A stretch of 64,000 nucleotides of DNA. Origin: Octopus vulgaris. Lineage: Eukaryota. The stretch covers positions 7,936,001-8,000,000 of the forward strand of contig OX597833.1 of the NCBI GenBank assembly GCA_951406725.2, read 5' to 3'. The position numbers were made by a program, and so were the translations under genes. Below, piece by piece: positions 4,427 to 61,837 of the stretch; the first letter of the stretch is position 1, and every line of letters starts with the position of its first letter. Below the pieces are notes generated by a model. The model was not told where the DNA came from. It saw nothing but the letters and a program-made list of their open reading frames with translations, and searched no databases.

Positions 4427-5226
4427 CGAGCTGGCAGAAACGTCAGCACGCCGGGCGAAATGCGTAGACGTATTTCGTCTGCCGTTACGTTCTGAGTTCA
4501 AATTCCGCCGAGGTCGACTTTGCCTTTCATCCTTTCGGGGTCGATTAAATAAGTACCAGTTACGCACTGGGGTCGATATAATTGACTTAATCCGTTTGTC
4601 TGTCCTTGTTCGTCCCCTCTGTGTTTAGCTCCGTGTGGGTAGTAAAGAAATAGGTATTTCATCTGCCGTTACGTTCTGAGTTCAAATTCCGCCGAGGTCG
4701 ACTTTGCCTTTCATCCTTTCGGGGTCGATAAATTAAGTACCAGTTACGCACTGGGGTCGATATAATCGACTTAATCCGTTTGTCTGCCCTTGTTCGTCCC
4801 CTCTGTGTTTAGCCCCTTGTGGGTAGTAAAGAAATAGGTATTTCGTCTGCCGTTACGTTCTGAGTTCAAATTCCGCCGAGGTCGACTTTGCCTTTCATCC
4901 TTTCGGGGTCAATAAAATAAGTACCAGTTTCGCACTGGGGCCGATGTAATCGACTTAATCCATTTGTCTGTCCTTGTTTGTCCCTCTATGTTTAGCCCCT
5001 TGTGGGTAGTAAAGAAATAAGAATCGTTAGCACGCCGGGAAAACTGCCTCGTTCGTTTTTACGGTCTGACTTCAAATTCCGTTGAGGTCGACTTTGCTTT
5101 TCATCCTTTCGGGGTCGATAAATTAAGTACCAGTACGCACTGGGGTCGATATAATCGACTTAATCCATTTGTCTGTCCTTGTTTGTCCCCTCTGTGTTTA
5201 GCCCCTTGTGGGTAATAAAGAAATAG
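4427..5226 (+). mobile_element. Tandem multimer (about 4 units of ~185 bp) of a tRNA-derived SINE (family M)
   Basis: Head CGAGCTGGCAGAAACGTCAGCAC, B-box-like GAGTTCAAATTCC and central GCCTTTCATCCTTTCGGGGTCGAT recur head-to-tail four times. Confidence 0.9.
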
Positions 5227-5812
5227 ATAATGTTTCCATGACTGGAACTGCTTTTAATTGGTAACTTAATTTCCTTTCCCGCGTGCTACGCCACAGAACG
5301 TCAGCAAATGGACTTCACCCTGTCTGCATATAAACCACGGACCAGCGATTATCTTCGTTTCCACATGATCCGAGTACATGGAAATGATAAGCCACAAAAA
5401 TGACAACATATCGGATATCTACCATTCTCGATCAATCGAGGCGAGTTGATTCGCCTGGGATGAGACATTTGGGGTTCTTTAACCCTTGGCGTCGTGTAAG
5501 GAGCTTTCCCAGACGCTACCCCGCAGCAAATGCGCGAATAAACAAAACACGCACACACTATATTTATGTTACTTGATCTGCTTTTAATTCGTAATTAAAT
5601 ATTTTTCTTCTTTCGATAATTAGTTTTATAATTTATTATATTGTATATGTCAATGTCAAGTTTAAACGTTTCATATTATTTTTGATACTCTCTGAATATC
5701 AGCTTTTATTCCGGACACGAATCTTCGGTTTAGATGTGAATTATTAATCAACGAACTAAATATCATCATTAATGAGAAATGCGATACCAATATTTTTTAT
5801 ATCGCATATGTA

Positions 5813-8356: not shown

Positions 8357-8401
<45 letters not shown>

Positions 8402-8421
8402 ATGTGTGTATACCTATAAAT

Positions 8422-8728
8422 ATATATAGAAAATAGTAAAAAGTGAAAAAACTACAGAAGGCTTGTTTTAAAAGGTTAAAAAATATATATTTGAGTCAAT
8501 ATGTCTGAAGAATGTTATAAATTTGTTTTCATACAATGACATAGTTTTTGAAAAAATGACCGGTTTCGCGTTCAGCTTTTCAAATTTCTTACATCGTTAT
8601 GTTTACGTTGAGAAGTGTAAAGAAGAGTTCCAGGTAAGGAGAGGTAATAAGTGACTCAAATATATATTTTTTAACCTTTTAAAACAAGCCTTCTGTAGTT
8701 TTTTCACATTTTACTATTTTCTATATAT
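8422..8728. mobile_element. Foldback element next to (TA)n, ~76 bp inverted arms with a hammerhead in the spacer (Penelope pLTR/retrozyme-like)
   Basis: Arms ~8422-8498 and ~8652-8728 are reverse complements with one mismatch; (TA)n on both sides. Confidence 0.75.
8551..8590 (-). ncRNA. Minimal type I hammerhead ribozyme, U3-A8 core variant
   Basis: Minus strand: aagaaat UUGAAAA GC ugaac GC GAAA CCGG UC auuuuuu; 7-bp stem I, 2-bp stem II, palindromic CCGG stem III, GUC cleavage triplet. Confidence 0.7.
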
Positions 8729-8859
8729 TCAACCACGTGCTTTCACACACCAACTTTCTCACCTATATATATATATATATATATATAATAACAATACAAT
8801 AAATAAAACATATGCATACATACATAAATATATGTACATACATGCATATATGAGTACGG

Positions 8860-12374: not shown

Positions 12375-12512
12375 GACCCACCTATGCTCAAGAACGAAAT
12401 GGTCTCAGAATATTGAACGTGACCGCTGAAGATGCTGCCATCTACACGTGTATATCAGAAGTTCCCTCTTTGGGGGACTTTCGAACTCGAGACATCAGAG
12501 TTCGAGTCATAG
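12375..12512 (+). CDS. Internal exon encoding the C-terminal half of an Ig domain; NCAM/Fasciclin-II/apCAM-like adhesion molecule
   Basis: Long polypyrimidine tract + CAG acceptor, 138-nt phase 1/phase 1 exon, G|GTAAAG donor; peptide PTYAQERNGLRILNVTAEDAAIYTCISEVPSLGDFRTRDIRVRVI has the L.I.NV...D...Y.C Ig signature and resembles Fas2 Ig2 as recalled. Confidence 0.85.
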
Positions 12513-12595
12513 GTAAAGTAGCTTCACTCTTCCTTCATTTCATAACTCTCCACTTTCAGCACCTTGCTCTCAACTATTCATCTTTTATTGGTTTG

Positions 12596-13476: not shown

Positions 13477-14077
13477 TAGTTTTATTTTTATTTTTATAGC
13501 GTGCTTTCACTTCACTACCGAGCGCAGCTCTGTGTGCCTTGGGTATGTGCTGTGATTTGTTGTGATGCTCTGATGGTTATTGTATGGAAAGTGTTCTGCG
13601 TAGGATGTGTGCAGTGCCTAGTAGTGCAATTTTCTGTATGTTATATGTGTTTGTAAGTCCTGGTGTTTTTGTTATGTATTTGTCTGAATATTTTTTTATC
13701 ATGCCTAATGCACCTACTATGATAGGAATTGTTTCTGTTTTCAGATTCCACATTCTAGTTACCTCTATTTCCAGGTCTTTGTATTTTGAGAGTTTCTCCA
13801 TTTCTTTTAGAGACACGTTGTCATCTGCCGGTACTGATACATCAATTAGAAAGCATTTTTTTTCTTCATGGTCTCTGACAACTATATCTGGTCTGTTGGC
13901 CTTAATTTCTCTATCTGTGTGTATCGGCATATCCCAGAGTATGGTTGCTTTCTCGTTTTCTGTGACCTTTTCTGGTGTGTGCCTATACCATCTTTTTTCT
14001 GTTGTTATTCCATAATGTTGGCATAGCTTCCAATGTATGTAAGTTCCAACTCTGTCATGTCTGTGAATATATTCCTT
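13474..14077 (-). mobile_element. 5'-truncated R4/Dong-clade non-LTR retrotransposon (RLE domain + 3' UTR)
   Basis: Open frame YIHRHDRVG...ILWD...NRPDIVV...LIDVSVP...EKLSKYKDL...IPIIVGALG...LLGTAHILRRTL* (RHD and PD..D motifs), ~100-nt 3' UTR, (TAA)n on both sides. Confidence 0.92.
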
Positions 14078-15017
<940 letters not shown>

Positions 15018-16644: not shown

Positions 16645-16705
16645 ACACACACACACACACCTACACACACGCACATACACGCCCGCACGCATATTATTTA
16701 TTTTT

Positions 16706-21245: not shown

Positions 21246-22383
21246 ACCATTTTATACATTAACATTCATAGATAAACATACGTACATATATACATACTTA
21301 CAGACATACATATTCACATGCTCACGCACACAGATAAACATAAGCCTACACACAGACAGACACCCTTTCTCCTCCATAGATACAGCACTAAACAAAAAAT
21401 TCCCCATAACATCATTTAACTGCAATTTCTATCACGATTGCCTTTTTGTTATTGTTATTGTATTCCTACATGCCAGATCTCATCACATGACCTATGATGA
21501 TATGTTTTCCAACTGTGACCTTCCCGCCTTTTCTGCGATACTTCATTTCAAACTACAATATCCAGTATTTCTCGCCTCATTTTATTAAAGGCTGTAGCGT
21601 AATATTTAAGATTTGACTGTTACTTCTAGCATGAGGAGTGACCACATAGAGCTGCATTTCTCACCCTGGTGGCAGTAATATTCATTTCATGAGATGCCGG
21701 AATATTTAAGAAACAGATTCACATTCTAATATAAATAAGAAACAACTTCAAATTAAGCTACAGCTGTTTCTGCGTAGGATTACAAGACCAGCATGGGACC
21801 ATACCACTTTTTCTTTACATTTCGAAAGGGTAGGTGCTGGGTGGTTCCACTTATCGCCAAAAGAGGATGGTTAGGAAGGTTGGGAAACATTCATAGGGGT
21901 TCTGTCAATGGGATTTTCCTGCCAATGGTTCTTCTCCGGATGTCTTCTCATGTTTTCATATTCAAACCGAACCATCAAGTCCATCAGCTCCACCAACGTT
22001 GGAAGGTCTTCGAAGGTGAAGACTATGACATTACCTCGTCATTAAATCATTAAGTAGGACCTACTTAACTTTTCCTCCATATGCAATTATTTTCATTATT
22101 GTATTTCGGGACAACATAACATAATTAGGATTTTTTAAAGCTGGGGTCTGTGAATAAAATAACCCTGTTATCGCACTAACCGGATACAGCGGCATTGTGA
22201 CTGCAAGAAGAGTTATTGAAGTGCGACGAAACTTTTTAACACTTCATAATAAACTGTGCTTTTAAGAAATAAACGGAAAATGAATATAACAAGGCTTTGT
22301 GTGCTTTTAAATGGTTCAAATGATTCTTCGACGATGGAATTGTTTTCAGGTTAAGAAATGGTCTCAGATCCCAACAACAAACA

Positions 22384-22757: not shown

Positions 22758-22920
22758 TATATACATCCCTCTCATATGTACATAATCATCCCTCTCATAT
22801 GTATATAATACAATTTACTGAACGTTCAGATTTTAATATGCTAGACCACTGGTGTTAAATTGATGTAAATTAATATCCAATTTCTCACCCAAATTTTAAA
22901 TTTAAATTTATATATATATA

Positions 22921-23661
22921 TATATAATAACGATACTTTTTTAAAAGACACTAGCTTTGCTGAACATAGGAGCTAAAACCCTCCGAGCCACAAAAATTAA
23001 CACTATATTTACACAGACATGGTCGGAAAAAAATCTAAGTGAATTAAAGAATTGCCTCTTACCTCTGCAAAAATGTAAAAAGGAATTCCAGTTAACTTGA
23101 TATCAAGATTTCGAATTTAGCGCCAAAAGACGCTTGATTCTCTTCAGTCAAGTCCACCGTAAAATAAACACGTGATTATCACTTAAGCCAATGCCTGAGT
23201 CCGTTTCAGTGGCCTTGCAGCACTGACAAAAACGAAATTAGGTGAATACAAACAACATGAATACTCACGAGAGATATTGATGTTAATGGCCGCAAGCTAA
23301 AGCCGTATCGGCAAAATAATTGGATAAATATATTTAAAAAATCATATATAATAAGGGTGCTTTTTAAAAAGACACCAGCTTTGCTGAACATAGGAGTTAA
23401 ATCCCTCCGAAGCCACAAAAATTAACACTATATTTATATAGGCATGCTTGGAAAAAAAATTAATGGCTTCAGAGGGTTTTAGCTCCTATGTTCAGCAAAG
23501 TTGGTGTTTTTAAAAAAGCACCTTTATTATATATGATTTTTAAAATATATTTATCCAATTATTTTTCCAATCCGGCTTTAGCTTGCGGCCACTAACATCA
23601 ATATCTCTCGTGAGTATTAACGTTCTTTGTATTCACCTAATTTCGTTTTTGTCAGTGCTGC
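22921..23661. mobile_element. Hammerhead-containing element with ~115 bp direct repeat and ~200 bp inverted repeat (Penelope pLTR/retrozyme-like)
   Basis: Direct repeats ~22921-23034 and ~23345-23460; inverted arms ~23217-23415 and ~23464-23661; TA repeats at both ends. Confidence 0.85.
23094..23154 (-). ncRNA. Type I hammerhead ribozyme with canonical core
   Basis: Minus strand: gacuuga CUGAAGA GAAUcaAGCGUC uuuu GGCGCUaaAUUC GAAA UCuuGA UA ucaaguu; 7-bp stem I, 10-bp stem II with a 2x2 loop, short stem III, AUA triplet. Confidence 0.85.
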
Positions 23662-26497: not shown

Positions 26498-27011
26498 GTG
26501 TGTGTGTGTGTGTGTGTGTTTGTATGTGTGTTTGTGTGTGTGTCTGTGACTGTGTGTGTGTACATGTCTTCGTGTCCGTGTTTGTCTCCACAGCCACTGC
26601 TTGACAATTGGTGCTTATTTGTTTACGCCTCCACAACCGACCAATAGAATAATATCTTTAAAGAAAAATAAGTCCCTGGGGCGATTTGTTCGACTAAAAC
26701 CGTACAAGATCGTTTCCCTGCATGGCTGTTGTCCAATGATTAAAAGAAATAAAGACTGTGTATATAAAAGCATGTAAATATTGAGTTGAATTTTCTATCA
26801 AAAGACAGATCGATCTGACTTTGAACTGACGCCGGGAACTCTTCACACACTAACAGAAGAAGGGAATTTTTATCCCGAAATATTGCAATACTAAAAACAG
26901 AATTTTTAGATATTTCTACACTTTTGTTATGTATTAGCAGCGCCATATTTTATTCTCTTTTATTTTTCACTCGCTCGCATTGCCACAAGGCATCATCAAA
27001 ACTCCCCATAT

Positions 27012-27060
<49 letters not shown>

Positions 27061-27064
<4 letters not shown>

Positions 27065-27442
27065 TAAGGGCTCCTAAATAAAGATGCCGAGTGCTGGGAA
27101 CACAAAAAGGGGATGAATTTATCGAGAGTGAAAATCAAAAACGTTTACCGATAACTTTAACAACTCGTACCGCGGTTTCTGCTTCTTTCTAGCAAAACAC
27201 AGAATATGTTTGCTAAGGCCAGCTTCATCAGCGAGTCGCCTGAATTTAATCGAGGTCTGCAGCGATGTGGGGCTATGTGTTAAACCCGACTACTAGCAGA
27301 TCTTAACTTTTCAAATCTCTGCGCAGACGCAAAATTTACACGGGCATGCCGGGAAGAATTTTACGAATAAATTCATCATGTAGTATGCGAATATAAACAA
27401 GAAGGGTAGTAAATAATATTACTACCCTTCTTGTTTATATTC

Positions 27443-27443
<1 letters not shown>
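27061..27443. mobile_element. (TA)n-embedded ~380 bp element with a hammerhead and a terminal 25-bp perfect hairpin
   Basis: (TA)n on both sides; arms 27388-27412 and 27419-27443 are perfect reverse complements. Confidence 0.8.
27161..27238 (-). ncRNA. Type I hammerhead ribozyme, near intact
   Basis: Minus strand: cgacucg CUGAUGA AGCU..UUAGCAAACAUAuucUGUGUUUUGCUAG..AGCA GAAA CCGCGG UA cgaguug; A.A mismatch at the stem II closing position. Confidence 0.75.
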
Positions 27444-27519
<76 letters not shown>

Positions 27520-27530
27520 TTGTATATGTG

Positions 27531-27576
<46 letters not shown>

Positions 27577-28012
27577 CACATATACACATACATACATATG
27601 ACCATTCCGAAATACAACAATGTATATATATATATATATATATGGTGTAAATGATTGAGAACACTTTCAGCTTGCCTCGGCGTCAGACATTATTTTAAAT
27701 ATTCCTCGTTCACCAACCAAATCAGTCACAACATTGTTTAATTATTCATAGCAGACAATGTGTTTCAGCAGATCAACTGACAGCGACATTAATGTGTTGA
27801 CGCCTTCAAGAAACAAAACCATTCTTGTCTGCTTTTTGTTCTTCATACCCGAGAATGGGCTAACCTATTGCTTATATATATATATATAATATATACTATA
27901 TATTTATGTATTATATAGGTGTAACACGGAATATCTTCCTATATTATATAGGCTAACATACTAATTCCATACTATATTACAAAGATAACATATTATATAG
28001 GCAAATATATTG

Positions 28013-32239: not shown

Positions 32240-32510
32240 AGAGAGAGAGTTGTGTCTGGGGAGGGTCATTCTCTTTTAGTCCCTAATCATTTGACACACG
32301 CACCGATAAATTTTCCACTCATTCACTTATTTATTTTTCCTAAAATTTCCGTTGCATTTTGCAACCTTTTCAATGGTCAAGAAAAATAAAGAAGTAAATG
32401 AGTGGAAACTTTACCGGTGAGTGTGTTAAATGATTAGGGACTAAAAGAGAATGACTCCCCAGACACAACAAAATATGCTTCAACACACGAACTCACATAA
32501 AGAATCTTGC
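32240..32510. mobile_element. Foldback element (~95 bp imperfect inverted arms) with a hammerhead-like spacer; related to 53996-54275
   Basis: Arms ~32240-32340 and ~32379-32469; spacer on the minus strand TTGAAAAG GTTGCA aaa TGCAAC GGAAA. Confidence 0.7.
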
Positions 32511-40849: not shown

Positions 40850-41900
40850 ACAATCGTGACAAATTTACCAATTCCTTTGTAGATTGAAGGAATGGTGAAC
40901 CGCTTTGACCGATTTCGACTCATCTTAAGGTCTACTGAGAAGTTCTTCTACCACTCGACCAATTCCTAAGAAACAAGCAGACATTCTATCTATTTACGCA
41001 TCAAATCTAGGTGTTACAGGGAACTGGGGCTTCTACTTTGCATATCATTGGGGTTTAAGACTTTATTTGATATCAACGTCTGAAGTAGAGTAAATCTAAC
41101 AACGAGTTACTGAAGAGAACTGAGGATGAGCAGGACGGTGCGTAGAACAAACGAACCAGGACTTGAGGAAACCGGAACAGGGACGACGGAAGGTTTGGTG
41201 TCAGGAAAAGAAAGCTGCTGTATTTCGGACGTCATCAGGGCCCAGAACCTCACCACCCCATCACCACCTCCCATCCTAGAGGAAAGAGTCAGTGGGAAAT
41301 GGCTGTAACTACATCAAGGAATGTACTAGAAGGTTTCCGGTTGAATGCACAACCATGGCTAAAAGCAGGAATCGATGGAGAGAAATGGGGCACGTGTCCA
41401 CGGTCCCTTGACTCTCAATAATGACGATGAGAATAGGCAAGGTAAGACTATGGTGCAGTGATGTGGTTTGTTGGATATAAAGATGGAGATTATTTTCCAG
41501 GTCTTTCTCAAGTCTCTCAACCTGTTCCCCTCTATCTACCACCATGAAGTTGTCATCAACATGTTTGGTGTAGACAAACCGGTTATTGGTAGGAATGAAT
41601 TTGTTTTTCAAGTTACTCGTGTATAATGCAGCAAACGTTGGGTCAAATGGAGAACCCATATCGAGTCCGTCTAACTGGATGTATAGATTACAGCGGAGAC
41701 AGTTTAAAGAAACTTGTGTTAGGTAAATCAACTGAAATATTTACAGGATGTTTCTTGCTACAGAAGGTGGTTATGGTATGGTCTGTAAAAATGTTATCCA
41801 AAATTCTGTTTATAGTTTCCGTTGCTGGAACGTTGATGTAAATACTTTTGACATCCGTGGTAGAAAGTTTAGGTCGAGTCTGACTCGTATTTCTGCGTGA
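40850..41900 (-). mobile_element. Decayed Penelope-like element (RT; possible GIY-YIG remnant)
   Basis: TTDVKSIYINVPATETINRILDNIF and YIQLDGLDMGSPFDPTFA..YTKHVDDNF match PLE RT motifs (DVxSLFTNVP, QxxGxxMGSP, RYVDD). Confidence 0.8.
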
Positions 41901-45352: not shown

Positions 45353-45696
45353 GAGAAACAGACAGACAGACAGACAGACAGATATGCATATATTTACAGT
45401 CAAAGCAAATCGTGATATCCTGAAATCAGTTGATACATTTTAAGGTTACGTATCAAATGATTTTGAAATATCGCTATTTTGGTTTGACTTCTTTATTGCA
45501 ACATATACGACTCGATGTCAATACAACCTCTCTAGACTTCCTTTACACAAATACTTTAATAATGGCTGGGGAGTAGTTTTTGATATTTGACTCAAGTCAA
45601 ACATGAAATACATACATACATACATACATACATACATACATACATACATACATACATACATACATACATACATACATACATACATACATACATTCA

Positions 45697-46106
45697 TACA
45701 AACGAGAAACTGTGCAGTTGTGGAAATCAGCTGCCCAGCGGATGTTAACATAAAGCTGAAGATCAGTGAAAAAGAGAACACCTGTGCTGAACTATTGAGA
45801 AATCTGCAGTTACTCTATCCATATTACGAGTTCAGGTTTATACCTGTAATTATTGGGTCCCTGGGATATTTAACACATTGCTTAAATACCAATCTTGAGA
45901 AATTAGGCTTCTCAAAACCAGAAAGGAGAAAGCTAATTCCAAGACTACAGATCCAATCCATCACTGGAACTGTAAAAATGTGTAAAACTTTCCAGAAGTT
46001 TATCATTTAAGTATATATATGAGCGTGTCTAGTTATGCAACTCTAAGCATGAGAATACATACATACATAGATTGGCAAGAAATCTTGAAGTAAAACAGAA
46101 TAATGA
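45697..46106 (+). mobile_element. 5'-truncated R4-type RLE LINE next to (TACA)n
   Basis: [52 protein letters not shown]; preceded by (TACA)n at ~45608-45692; ends TAAAACAGAATAATGA then CATA. Confidence 0.85.
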
Positions 46107-46198: not shown

Positions 46199-46950
46199 CT
46201 AAAGGATACACTCATCACCAGAAACTCCCCACCATCACTAATTGACATATGGTTTCAACGTGCTCTACAACTCAACAACCACGAACTCAGACATCCCAAA
46301 TTAAAGAAGGATTTACAACCAAAAGCCCTAGCATAATCTTCGCACACAACCCATTTAACAATGAAGCCTTCGACACCATCCTTCAAAACATTCCCCCGCC
46401 AAAAATGGACCACAGAATGAACTTAATCCTCCAAACACACACCATCATAAAAAGCGAGAGACAGCCCAAATCTATGAAAAGACTCCAAATACAAGCTCTA
46501 ATATGCTCAACAACAACACAGAAGCCATCAGTAAAAAAAAATGCGGAAGATCCAACTGTGGGATATGCGTCAATTTAAATGAGGGATCAGAGTTCTTCTT
46601 CAAACAGGGGCAATGTTTCACAGTGAAAAGTAGCCTCACATGTGCTTCAGAGAACCTGATATACGCTCTAACCTGCTCTGGGTGTCAAAAGCAATACATA
46701 GGCCAAACAAAAACAGTCTACGTCAAAGGATGACTCTGCACAGATCCCAGATCAAAATTCCCCCAAAACAGAAAAATAGCATTCAGCCAACACGTCGACA
46801 TTTGAGCCAATAACAAAAATCCAAGCTTCAGAATTTTTCTTCTCTACCAATTCAGGGACGATACAACCTGTAGCCAACGAATTAGTAAAGATACTCTCTT
46901 TATTACAGAATATAGACCCCTTTTGAACGCATCTACAACAAACGACATAT
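46195..46950 (+). mobile_element. Penelope-like element 3' part (Cys-rich linker + GIY-YIG endonuclease), frameshifted
   Basis: KKCGRSNCGIC...LTCASENLIYALTCSGCQKQYIGQT..LRQRMTLHRSQI...EYRPLLN; starts right after (TA)n. Confidence 0.88.
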
Positions 46951-53995: not shown

Positions 53996-54275
53996 TGTTT
54001 TATATATTAAAATGTATTTCACTCATAAAAATATTCGTTAATTTCAATCGTGTTTTTGGTTTCTGAAAAACTTTTATAAGGCTTTTTCGTTTTGGGATTT
54101 GGTTTGCAAGATTCTTTATATGAGTTCCTGTGTTGAAGCATATTCTGTTGTGTCTGGGGAGAGTCATTTTCTTTTTGTGCCTTATAATGCAACACACTCA
54201 CCGGTAAAATTTCCACTTTTTTCTTATTTTTATTTTCCTAAAACTTTCGTTTCGTCTCGTGCAACCTTTTCAATC
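53996..54275. mobile_element. Second copy of the 32240 family, without the foldback
   Basis: GCAAGATTCTTTAT.TGAGTTC.TGTGTTGAAGCATATT..GTTGTGTCTGGGGA...GCAACCTTTTCAAT shared. Confidence 0.75.
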
Positions 54276-61041: not shown

Positions 61042-61837
61042 CATCATCATCATCGTTTAACGTCCGCTTTCCATGCTGGCATGGGTTGGACGGTTCAACT
61101 GGGGTCTGGGGAGCCCGAAGGCTGCACCAGGCCCAGTCAGATCTGGCAGTGTTTCTACAGCTGGATGCCCTTCCTAACGCCAACCACTCCGAGAGTGTAG
61201 TGGGTGATTTTATGTGCCACCGAAACAGGTGCCAGACGAGTCTGGCGAACGGCCACAATCGGATGGTGTTTGTTACGTGCCCACAGCACGGAGGCCAGTC
61301 GATGCGGTACTGGCTACGGCCACGTTCGAATGGTTTTCTTATGTGCCACCGGCACTGGTACCACAAAGATACAAATTCCATTGATGTTCATCTATTTTGA
61401 TTTGCACCATCCGAACGTGGCCGATGCCAGCGCCCTCTAGACTGGTTTCTGTACCGGTGGCACATAAAAAGCACCATCCGAACGTGGCCGATGCCAGCGC
61501 CCTCTTGACTGGCTTCTGTGCCGGTGGCACATAAAAAGCACCATCCGAACGTGGCCGATGCCAGCGCCGTTTGGCTGGCTTCCGTGCCGGTGGCACGTTA
61601 AAAGCACCAACCGATCATGGCCGATGCCAGACTCCCCTGGCACCTGTGCAGGTGGCACGTAAAATGCACCCACTACACTCTCAGAGCGGTTGGCGTTAGG
61701 AAGGGCATCCAGCAGTAGGAACTCTGCCAGATCAGACTGGAGCCTGGTACAGCCCCTGGCTTCCCAGACCCCGGTCGAACCGTCCAACCCGTGCTAGCGC
61801 GGAAAACGGATGTTAAACGATGATGATGATGATGATG
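61042..61837. mobile_element. Head-to-head inverted pair of a (GAT)n-tailed retroposon with internal ~67 bp tandem repeats
   Basis: CATCATCATCGTTTAACGTCCG... at left and ...CGGATGTTAAACGATGATGATG at right; ~4 units GCACCATCCGAACGTGGCCGATGCCAG... at 61404-61665; diverged fragment at ~59933-60120. Confidence 0.85.

Follow-up and report, generated by a model that had tools for sequence, protein, structure and literature searches.

A putative Penelope-type insertion in Octopus vulgaris with a predicted hammerhead ribozyme, an A·A beside its core and a head-to-head junction

Hammerhead motifs of Penelope-like elements (PLEs) follow the consensus CUGANGAH-G...C-GAAA with a palindromic stem III (PMC4209133, Fig. 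S3). In the excerpts of that report, metazoan PLE hammerheads carry a conserved extra nucleotide that follows A9 and precedes G10.1, pair G10.1 with C11.1 and have a long stem II; U3-A8 families are included, and U3-A8 covariation is known from them. GAAA is found in 55/56 motifs of Fig. S3 and AGAAA in 1/56. By row order (29th), an assignment in which the column order may be off, the AGAAA motif is that of the Cotesia congregata bracovirus PLE, which also has an extra A after A9. The same excerpts describe published PLE hammerheads as cutting weakly in vitro and minimal forms as cutting very poorly. U3-A8 hammerheads are active in vitro (PMC3088659). A mismatch beside the core is expected to slow cleavage, and U·U is the best tolerated (PMC3088659); an A·A should therefore be poorer. 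In the axolotl motif HHR_Amex2 the base of stem II carries a U·U throughout the family, and cleavage is better in the dimer (excerpts of PMC7229834 and 10.64898/2026.07.22.740005).

Descriptions of PLEs include inverted copies that are truncated at the 5' end, junctions with palindromes and insertion into (TA)n (excerpts of PMC8557442 and PMC3846280), as well as a PLE tail of 30-40 nt (PMC8557442, excerpt). What is known is thus the Penelope-type hammerhead in a dispersed repeat, and the Penelope-type inverted insertion as a class. In the portions of text reached, our literature search gave no direct report of an A·A at positions 10.1-11.1 or of octopus hammerheads; Lunse et al. 2017 or the supplements of 10.64898/2026.07.22.740005 may describe the A·A layout.

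Here we describe a locus that we read, with a probability of about 0.68, as a Penelope-type insertion that is 5'-truncated and head to head and was primed at each of the two (TA)n ends. It would carry a PLE-type hammerhead, predicted to act as a dimer, in which two extra A's are a trait of the family.

The element, its locus and its relatives in sequencing runs

The window, the whole stretch of 64 kb that was analysed, is microsatellite-rich animal DNA with 169 tandem-repeat rows and several interspersed repeat families. The parts of the element and its flanks are as follows.

27008..27060, no strand: left (TA)n tract, the target side at the element's 3' end
27061..27412, minus strand: non-coding main copy of 352 nt, its 5' truncation lying within the 8-bp hairpin of the family
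27405..27443, plus strand: inverted second copy of 39 nt, made up of two 8-nt arms around a 6-nt loop, followed by 17 nt
27405..27412: overlap of the main and inverted copies, head to head, 8 nt
27444..27599, no strand: right (TA)n tract, likely the second priming end
27112..27122, minus strand: long-range helix, 3' strand, closing the ribozyme domain in the predicted fold
27367..27377, minus strand: long-range helix, 5' strand, 11/11 complementary to 27112-27122

The 383 nt (27061-27443) contain no ORF and have stops in all six frames. The locus holds a single copy of the hammerhead element and no tandem array, and no second copy was found within the 64-kb window. No tRNA head was detected in the element, and no reverse transcriptase or endonuclease gene was seen linked to it. 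A bacterial promoter scan of the sequence was uninformative. Elsewhere in the window, decayed ORFs at 41309-41740 (minus strand) and 46246-46733 (plus strand) by eye resemble pieces of a PLE reverse transcriptase and a Cys-rich GIY-YIG endonuclease; Pfam gave no match for either. Nothing significant was found by Pfam in 5/5 window ORFs queried, from 217 listed.

Several other structures were observed in the window. A probable exon of an immunoglobulin-domain gene lies at 12410-12532 on the plus strand (V-set, E = 0.052), and if that gene spans 27 kb the ribozyme would be antisense in an intron. Inverted-repeat structures are present at 32249-32469, 8369-8787 and 61042-61831, the first of them also copied at 54105-54274. 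Four near-tandem copies of a SINE-like unit of 184-206 nt occupy 4427-5229, and the unit recurs in at least 8 other places of the window. A 3' fragment of a non-LTR retrotransposon, with an ORF that by eye looks like a restriction-like endonuclease, lies in a long (ATT)n array at 13577-14100 (minus strand), and similar pieces occur at 45591-46010 and near 16700.

The family evidence comes from contig tables of public sequencing runs, of which 7 from 6 studies, out of 20 that hold the element's words, were compared with the element; one of these may be the source of the window's own DNA. The first-pass annotation had proposed a hammerhead family with other copies, and such copies are abundant. 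At least half of the element's words were contained in 20/24 listed runs (10 studies, 4 organism labels), and the other 4/24 were same-sample or same-study rows that contained none of them. Variant contigs on the element, over all identity bands, numbered 497 in X17 and 141 in X13, two large runs. Compared piece by piece, 27061-27412 differs from the main contigs of X5, X7 and X8 at 0-3 places; over 27148-27262 the main contigs of X4 and X16 show 0 and 1 differences, respectively. This copy is therefore close to a common current subfamily. Depth sums in X17 run from 8,000 to 228,000, against 30-60 for single contigs, which suggests hundreds of element copies or more, depth being no direct copy number. 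By its sequence, the 383-bp element reads as a young copy of a multicopy non-coding family. An RNA run holding the element is not on record among the listed runs; the RNA nature of X4 and X16 is only guessed, and both were left out as expression evidence. A relative cut off inside GAAA at 27177 was observed in X4 and X16, from two studies, joined in both to identical unrelated sequence.

A second short inverted match, which had been noticed at about 27112 and 27364, corresponds to 27112-27122 with 27367-27377 (11/11 complementary). The match alone is modestly unlikely, with 0.025 expected in 383 nt. In the predicted fold of the whole element this helix has pair probabilities of 0.92-1.0, and 3/3 listed variants stay paired as G·U on the sense strand. 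Since the match is present in the sequence of other copies and its variants keep the pairing, it reads as an RNA helix that closes the ribozyme domain and not as a scar of insertion. The fold z-score of the element was -7.0 with the terminal hairpin and -0.6 without it (plus strand, 0.96), and the stability of whole-element folding was therefore not taken as evidence.

The terminal hairpin and the insertion junction

The perfect 25-bp foldback at 27388-27443, described in the first-pass annotation as abutting (TA)n, was recovered in full: arms 27388-27412 and 27419-27443 are complementary at 25/25 positions around a 6-nt loop. The chance expectation for such a hairpin is about 1e-9 per 64 kb. 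Its length, which had been put forward as a point of comparison between copies, does differ. Beyond 27412 the family contigs of 4/4 runs continue with TATTAT TTACTACC and then with sequence absent from the window; the window continues with ATAATA TTACTACC and then with 17 nt repeated in reverse. The family's 14-letter continuation is the reverse complement of 27405-27418. With TATTAT in this position the family hairpin is therefore only 8 bp long, with a 6-nt loop, against 25 bp here. The family sequence extends at least 84 nt upstream of the hairpin. By these comparisons the 25-bp stem consists of 17 duplicated and 8 natural pairs, a 39-nt inverted copy having been joined to the main copy through the 8-nt arm.

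Fold-back of the main cDNA was considered as the origin of the stem and excluded, as it would give TATTAT on the plus strand, that is, the opposite loop direction. The earlier suggestion that the hairpin records self-priming or template switching at insertion thus stands in part. Other copies lack the 25-bp stem, which argues for an event at the time of insertion, but the loop direction removes self-priming by the main cDNA. Two routes are left for the hairpin, namely priming by the second DNA end, or self-priming of the antisense strand followed by a switch.

Two X17 contigs enter (TA)n behind 27440, 3 nt from the end of this copy, which suggests that a site at about 27440 is a recurrent internal priming site. 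The right junction shows weak microhomology to (TA)n, at 3/4 positions, with the mismatch at the last base. X17 depth was higher over 27386-27437 than over 27360-27385, a rise that would fit a second fixed end but was not counted, as overlapping contigs can inflate depth. A contig with this copy's own junction was not found among those matched. The likeness of the upstream loose end to the 3' part of the element was not significant (18% of 2,000 shuffles scored as well). A target-site duplication is unreadable in (TA)n. Two features of PLE insertions are present, an inverted 5'-truncated copy at the 5' end and a microsatellite target; in place of a 30-40-nt tail on one arm, the 3' ends of the main and inverted copies lie 327 nt apart. 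As 25 nt were copied twice, the two cDNAs needed two separate RNAs, a single RNA copied a second time, or a template that was tandem or circular, which calls for dual priming or a re-used tandem or circular template and not for classical twin priming.

The strongest competing account takes this last point further. The template would be a tandem or circular retrozyme unit of more than ~436 nt, copied here at less than unit length, and the 3' ends would be two fixed starts on the circle. The lack of an ORF in the element and the twice-copied 25 nt agree with it. However, a joint from 27061 back to the 5' part of the element is not listed among the run contigs, and the ribozyme features are closer to PLE motifs than to canonical retrozyme motifs. 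We give this account a real chance, if one somewhat below even. It is compatible with the insertion primed from both ends and differs from it in the nature of the template.

Self-priming of the antisense strand, folded at the natural hairpin and with its primer strand trimmed to 39 nt, predicts the observed loop direction as well, and head-to-head palindromic PLE junctions have been read in this way (PMC3846280, excerpt). Against it, the short arm ends at a U/A-rich site where two other contigs also enter (TA)n (27440), a pattern that priming would produce and random trimming would not. Moreover, if the strand were anchored in the right (TA)n, its next template would be the flank, and it would have to switch to the other cDNA anyway. 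We regard this route as unlikely and prefer priming from the second (TA)n end. A fold-back artefact of library or assembly, to which the lack of a matched contig spanning the junction might point, is hardly credible, as a read fold-back would orient the loop like the main copy or extend the mirror further, into the flank, whereas the junction uses 14 nt of family sequence that the main copy does not have, and (TA)n adjoins both ends.

The hammerhead motif and the A·A beside its core

A type I hammerhead motif is present at 27240-27159 on the minus strand, with the following parts.

27232..27240, minus strand: stem I, 5' strand, pairing with 27167-27159
27231-27225, minus strand: core CUGAUGA, with U3-A8 in a subfamily
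27224, minus strand: extra A after A9 (10.1 of the first-pass annotation), the PLE-type H of CUGANGAH
27181..27223, minus strand: long stem II, with 3 pairs, then an internal loop, then a distal hairpin of 12 pairs that has one bulge
27180, minus strand: extra A that separates G12 from the first C of stem II (11.1 of the first-pass annotation)
27168..27179, minus strand: GAAA, 2-bp stem III with palindromic CCGCGG, and GUA triplet
27159..27167, minus strand: stem I, 3' strand, with pair probabilities of 0.59-0.92 in the whole element
27148..27178, minus strand: 3' half of the ribozyme, common with longer X7 contigs, 30 nt exact

CUGAUGA and GAAA, the GUA site, stem I and the extended stem II had all been reported from the sequence, and each was found in 27240-27159; the palindromic CCGCGG of stem III is likewise there, at 27175-27170. 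Stem I has 9 pairs, 3 of them G·U, and is open-ended. At the base of stem II, GCU (27223-27221) pairs with AGC (27183-27181), and the distal hairpin spans about 27216-27189. Then follow GAAA (27179-27176), C-CGCG-G (27175-27170), U (27169) and A17 (27168). From the hammerhead consensus, the cut is predicted between 27168 (A17) and 27167. The numbering and descriptor motifs used here agree with PMC3088659.

All core residues, C3 U4 G5 A6 N7 G8 A9 ... G12 A13 A14 A15.1, U16.1 and H17, are in place, and so are three helices (9 pairs in stem I, 3 + 12 in stem II and 2 in stem III). In place of a canonical standard 10.1-11.1 pair between A9 and G12 there is an A·A; as this appears to be fixed in the family, the motif was not filed as a canonical hammerhead. 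A descriptor as strict as the motif, run on both strands, gave 2 matches in the window, the motif at 27240-27159 and one at 23154-23094, and 0 matches when the 64 kb were shuffled 200 times in blocks with dinucleotides kept; the descriptor had been fitted after the motif had been seen. Rfam gave 0 matches in the window at gathering score, and at E<=10 no hammerhead family was among the 46 matches in 26900-27600. A third descriptor match, at 26130-26033, was dropped as it has no stem II. Matches in metagenome contigs (2) and bacterial genomes (5) were set aside as chance, having no stem I or no upstream core; the chance expectation for a 19-mer is 4.3. Viral contigs scanned for the element gave 0 matches.

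The match at 23154-23094 (minus strand) is a second type I hammerhead, with CUGAAGA, a 4-pair stem II and a 7-pair stem I. It adjoins a 445-nt inverted repeat with a partial tandem (23217-23661, 22920-23033 and 23344-23458) that ends at TA runs, and we read this locus as a Penelope-type complex insertion of another family.

Compared with PLE-type motifs, the element has the extra nucleotide (A 27224) followed by G 27223-C 27181, and palindromic 15.2-16.2 and loop III (CCGCGG here, GAUC-centred in relatives). C11.1 does not stand directly before GAAA, since A 27180 intervenes. The A·A is thus best read as a combination of the PLE-type extra A that follows A9 and a further A preceding G12. In PLE numbering A27224 is the usual extra base, G27223-C27181 the first pair and A27180 the oddity. 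A better repair toward the PLE consensus would be to drop the A before G12, and not to change A to U.

Variants over 27140-27262 were listed for 4 runs with a threshold of 1%, subfamilies below 1% (for example the second X13 record) lying outside the listing. There were 10 substitutions. At 27180 or 27224 no change was listed at 1% in 4/4 runs, or at the 5% threshold among 40 of the 54 rows; the neighbours 27181 and 27223 do vary. A diverged X7 contig has 16 differences in 142 nt (11%; 14 taken from the 5% listing and 2 from the 1% listing), all of them elsewhere, and keeps both A's. In this contig U3-A8 replaces C3-G8 in phase (27231 and 27226), and the third stem II pair is changed from U-A to C-G, also in phase (27221 and 27183). 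Its loose end, read by hand, shows C17 and a GAUC-centred stem III palindrome, so that in loop III of relatives one palindrome is swapped for another. U3-A8 was also present in one X13 contig (depth 2,562) from another study. In X13 the changes at 27223 and 27181 have comparable depths (1,796 and 1,251); if in phase, they would replace G-C by A-U. N17 in X17 is changed from A to U at 22,060 of 75,328 depth and from A to C at 1,050; no A to G was found among the rows listed. The double change of C3-G8 to U3-A8 and the U or C at N17 are changes tolerated by a working hammerhead (PMC3088659). On the ribozyme strand, C>U and A>G made up most of the changes listed in 27096-27295, an excess that could reflect selection for G·U or RNA-level editing fixed by reverse transcription.

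Because no change was listed at either A and the diverged contig keeps both, the A·A reads as a trait of the family and not as a private mutation. It may vary in rare relatives, as subfamilies below 1% and 14 rows lay outside the listing.

The 3' half of the ribozyme also occurs in other surroundings. Two X7 contigs of 2,439 and 936 nt share 30 identical nt and then continue with other sequence (30 letters visible in each). The loose end beside the 2,439-nt contig, read in the sense direction, has a second CUGAGGA-A-G about 10 nt downstream. These contigs may be longer, possibly autonomous relatives, with tandem hammerheads possible.

Evidence on function was of several kinds. The self-duplex of stem III was predicted at -14.1 kcal/mol and the monomer hairpin at +1.9 kcal/mol; dimer action is therefore the likely mode of the predicted ribozyme, as for published PLE motifs. 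The 13 variable places avoid the 11 strict core places with P = 0.13, which is not significant alone. Of the 45 substitutions listed, 25 fall at unpaired places, 14 preserve pairing or compensate for its loss, and 6 disrupt a pair. Against random placement this preservation of pairing gave P = 0.008 on the sense fold, with the hammerhead register of stem II in place of the minimum-energy register; the test is weak because both antisense controls were low as well (0.03 and 0.02), and because a bias toward C>U and A>G by itself yields G·U pairs. The U3-A8 contig, read by hand, has an A·G mismatch in stem I. In this copy, which has G at 27220, a CUG/CAG helix can form in competition and occupy G12; the pair probability of the hammerhead-type stem II is 0.19, and the active fold lies 2.0 kcal/mol above the minimum. 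An A at 27220 abolishes the competing helix and is the majority in X17 (83,217 of 90,254) and a minority in X13 (19,939 of 52,913).

These data bear on a further alternative, in which the extra A before G12 crippled the ribozyme of the founder, the element still spreads as the Penelope enzyme recognises its structure or 3' end, and the core is kept only as the family is young. An A·A beside the core is not among the tolerated mismatches (PMC3088659), and the very poor cutting of minimal PLE hammerheads, the value for core sparing and the competing helix in this copy fit it as well. However, the 11%-diverged subfamily keeps both A's and shows double changes at C3-G8 and in stem II; its palindrome is new and its N17 is one of those permitted. 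Nothing would maintain such features in a dead motif. We therefore consider a dead founder improbable, slightly more so than antisense self-priming, and favour a likely dimer-acting ribozyme with the A·A as a family trait. The proposal of the first-pass annotation that a single mutation, U to A, broke a canonical hammerhead with A10.1-U11.1 in this copy is very improbable: A-U is a normal textbook pair at 10.1-11.1 and rare subfamilies lie outside the listing, but no U or other variant at 27180 was listed at 1% in 4/4 runs, and the diverged contig retains the A.

Proposed mechanism and comparison with described systems

In the insertion that we favour, the element would be transcribed in the minus sense, and two ribozymes, joined by pairing of their palindromic stems III, would cut at 27168, behind the GUA. 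In the predicted core, CUGAUGA-A, G-C, long stem II and A-GAAA, the two A's may flank or stack on the first G-C. A GIY-YIG endonuclease would open (TA)n. One DNA end would prime at the 3' end of the element (27061) and be extended by 352 nt up to the hairpin, and the other would prime at the internal U/A-rich site (27443; ~27440 in other copies) and be extended by 39 nt through the hairpin. The two cDNA ends, complementary over the 8-nt arm, would then anneal and be filled in, giving the product that the sequence displays, a perfect 25-bp stem with its loop in the short copy's direction. The template could be a pLTR, a short non-autonomous derivative, or a retrozyme unit, which would then exceed ~436 nt.

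We tentatively join these parts into a wider reading, which we hold to be possible and rather less probable than the insertion itself. An active family would keep the A·A core under selection, possibly as a sheared A·A on G12·A9, and swap the 3' half as a module; the 2.4-kb contig with a second hammerhead start would be a candidate autonomous partner, and the 8-bp hairpin would serve as a cDNA splint. If so, the A·A core would be a working variant that is discarded by descriptors demanding a 10.1-11.1 pair, and loop direction across copies would separate dual priming from antisense self-priming. A family-wide A·A at the most conserved position of stem II would be a natural test of core tolerance, and genome searches that reject a 10.1-11.1 mismatch (as in PMC3088659) would miss whole families. 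A junction in a natural hairpin with a non-palindromic loop makes loop direction a simple read-out of head-to-head PLE insertion.

The closest described motifs are the PLE hammerheads, as given in the excerpts of PMC4209133. They share with the element CUGANGA plus an extra nucleotide and G-C, a long stem II, a U3-A8 subfamily, palindromic 15.2-16.2 and loop III (CGCG also occurs in Aedes motifs), mostly single dispersed motifs and predicted dimer action. The element differs in its stem I of 9 pairs against 2-5, its far longer stem II with an internal loop, the second extra A, apparently fixed family-wide, and the lack of a linked ORF. Metazoan non-LTR retrozymes (excerpts of PMC7229834 and 10.64898/2026.07.22.740005) are also non-coding, a few hundred nt long and multicopy, with a type I hammerhead; the element differs from them in its single copy here with no tandem array, and in its A·A against the U·U of HHR_Amex2.

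As to the insertion, LINE-1 twin or dual priming (PMC2837659, excerpt) likewise places two cDNAs, from two target sides, head to head. The classical LINE-1 form deletes sequence between the arms, whereas the element duplicates 25 nt. The inverted pLTR insertions of endonuclease-bearing PLEs (excerpts of PMC3846280 and PMC8557442) are alike in the overlapping head-to-head short copy, the palindromic junction and (TA)n. The element differs from those insertions in the offset of its 3' ends, 327 nt in place of a 30-40-nt tail, and in a junction made through a natural 8-bp hairpin, whose loop direction marks the strand that was read through.
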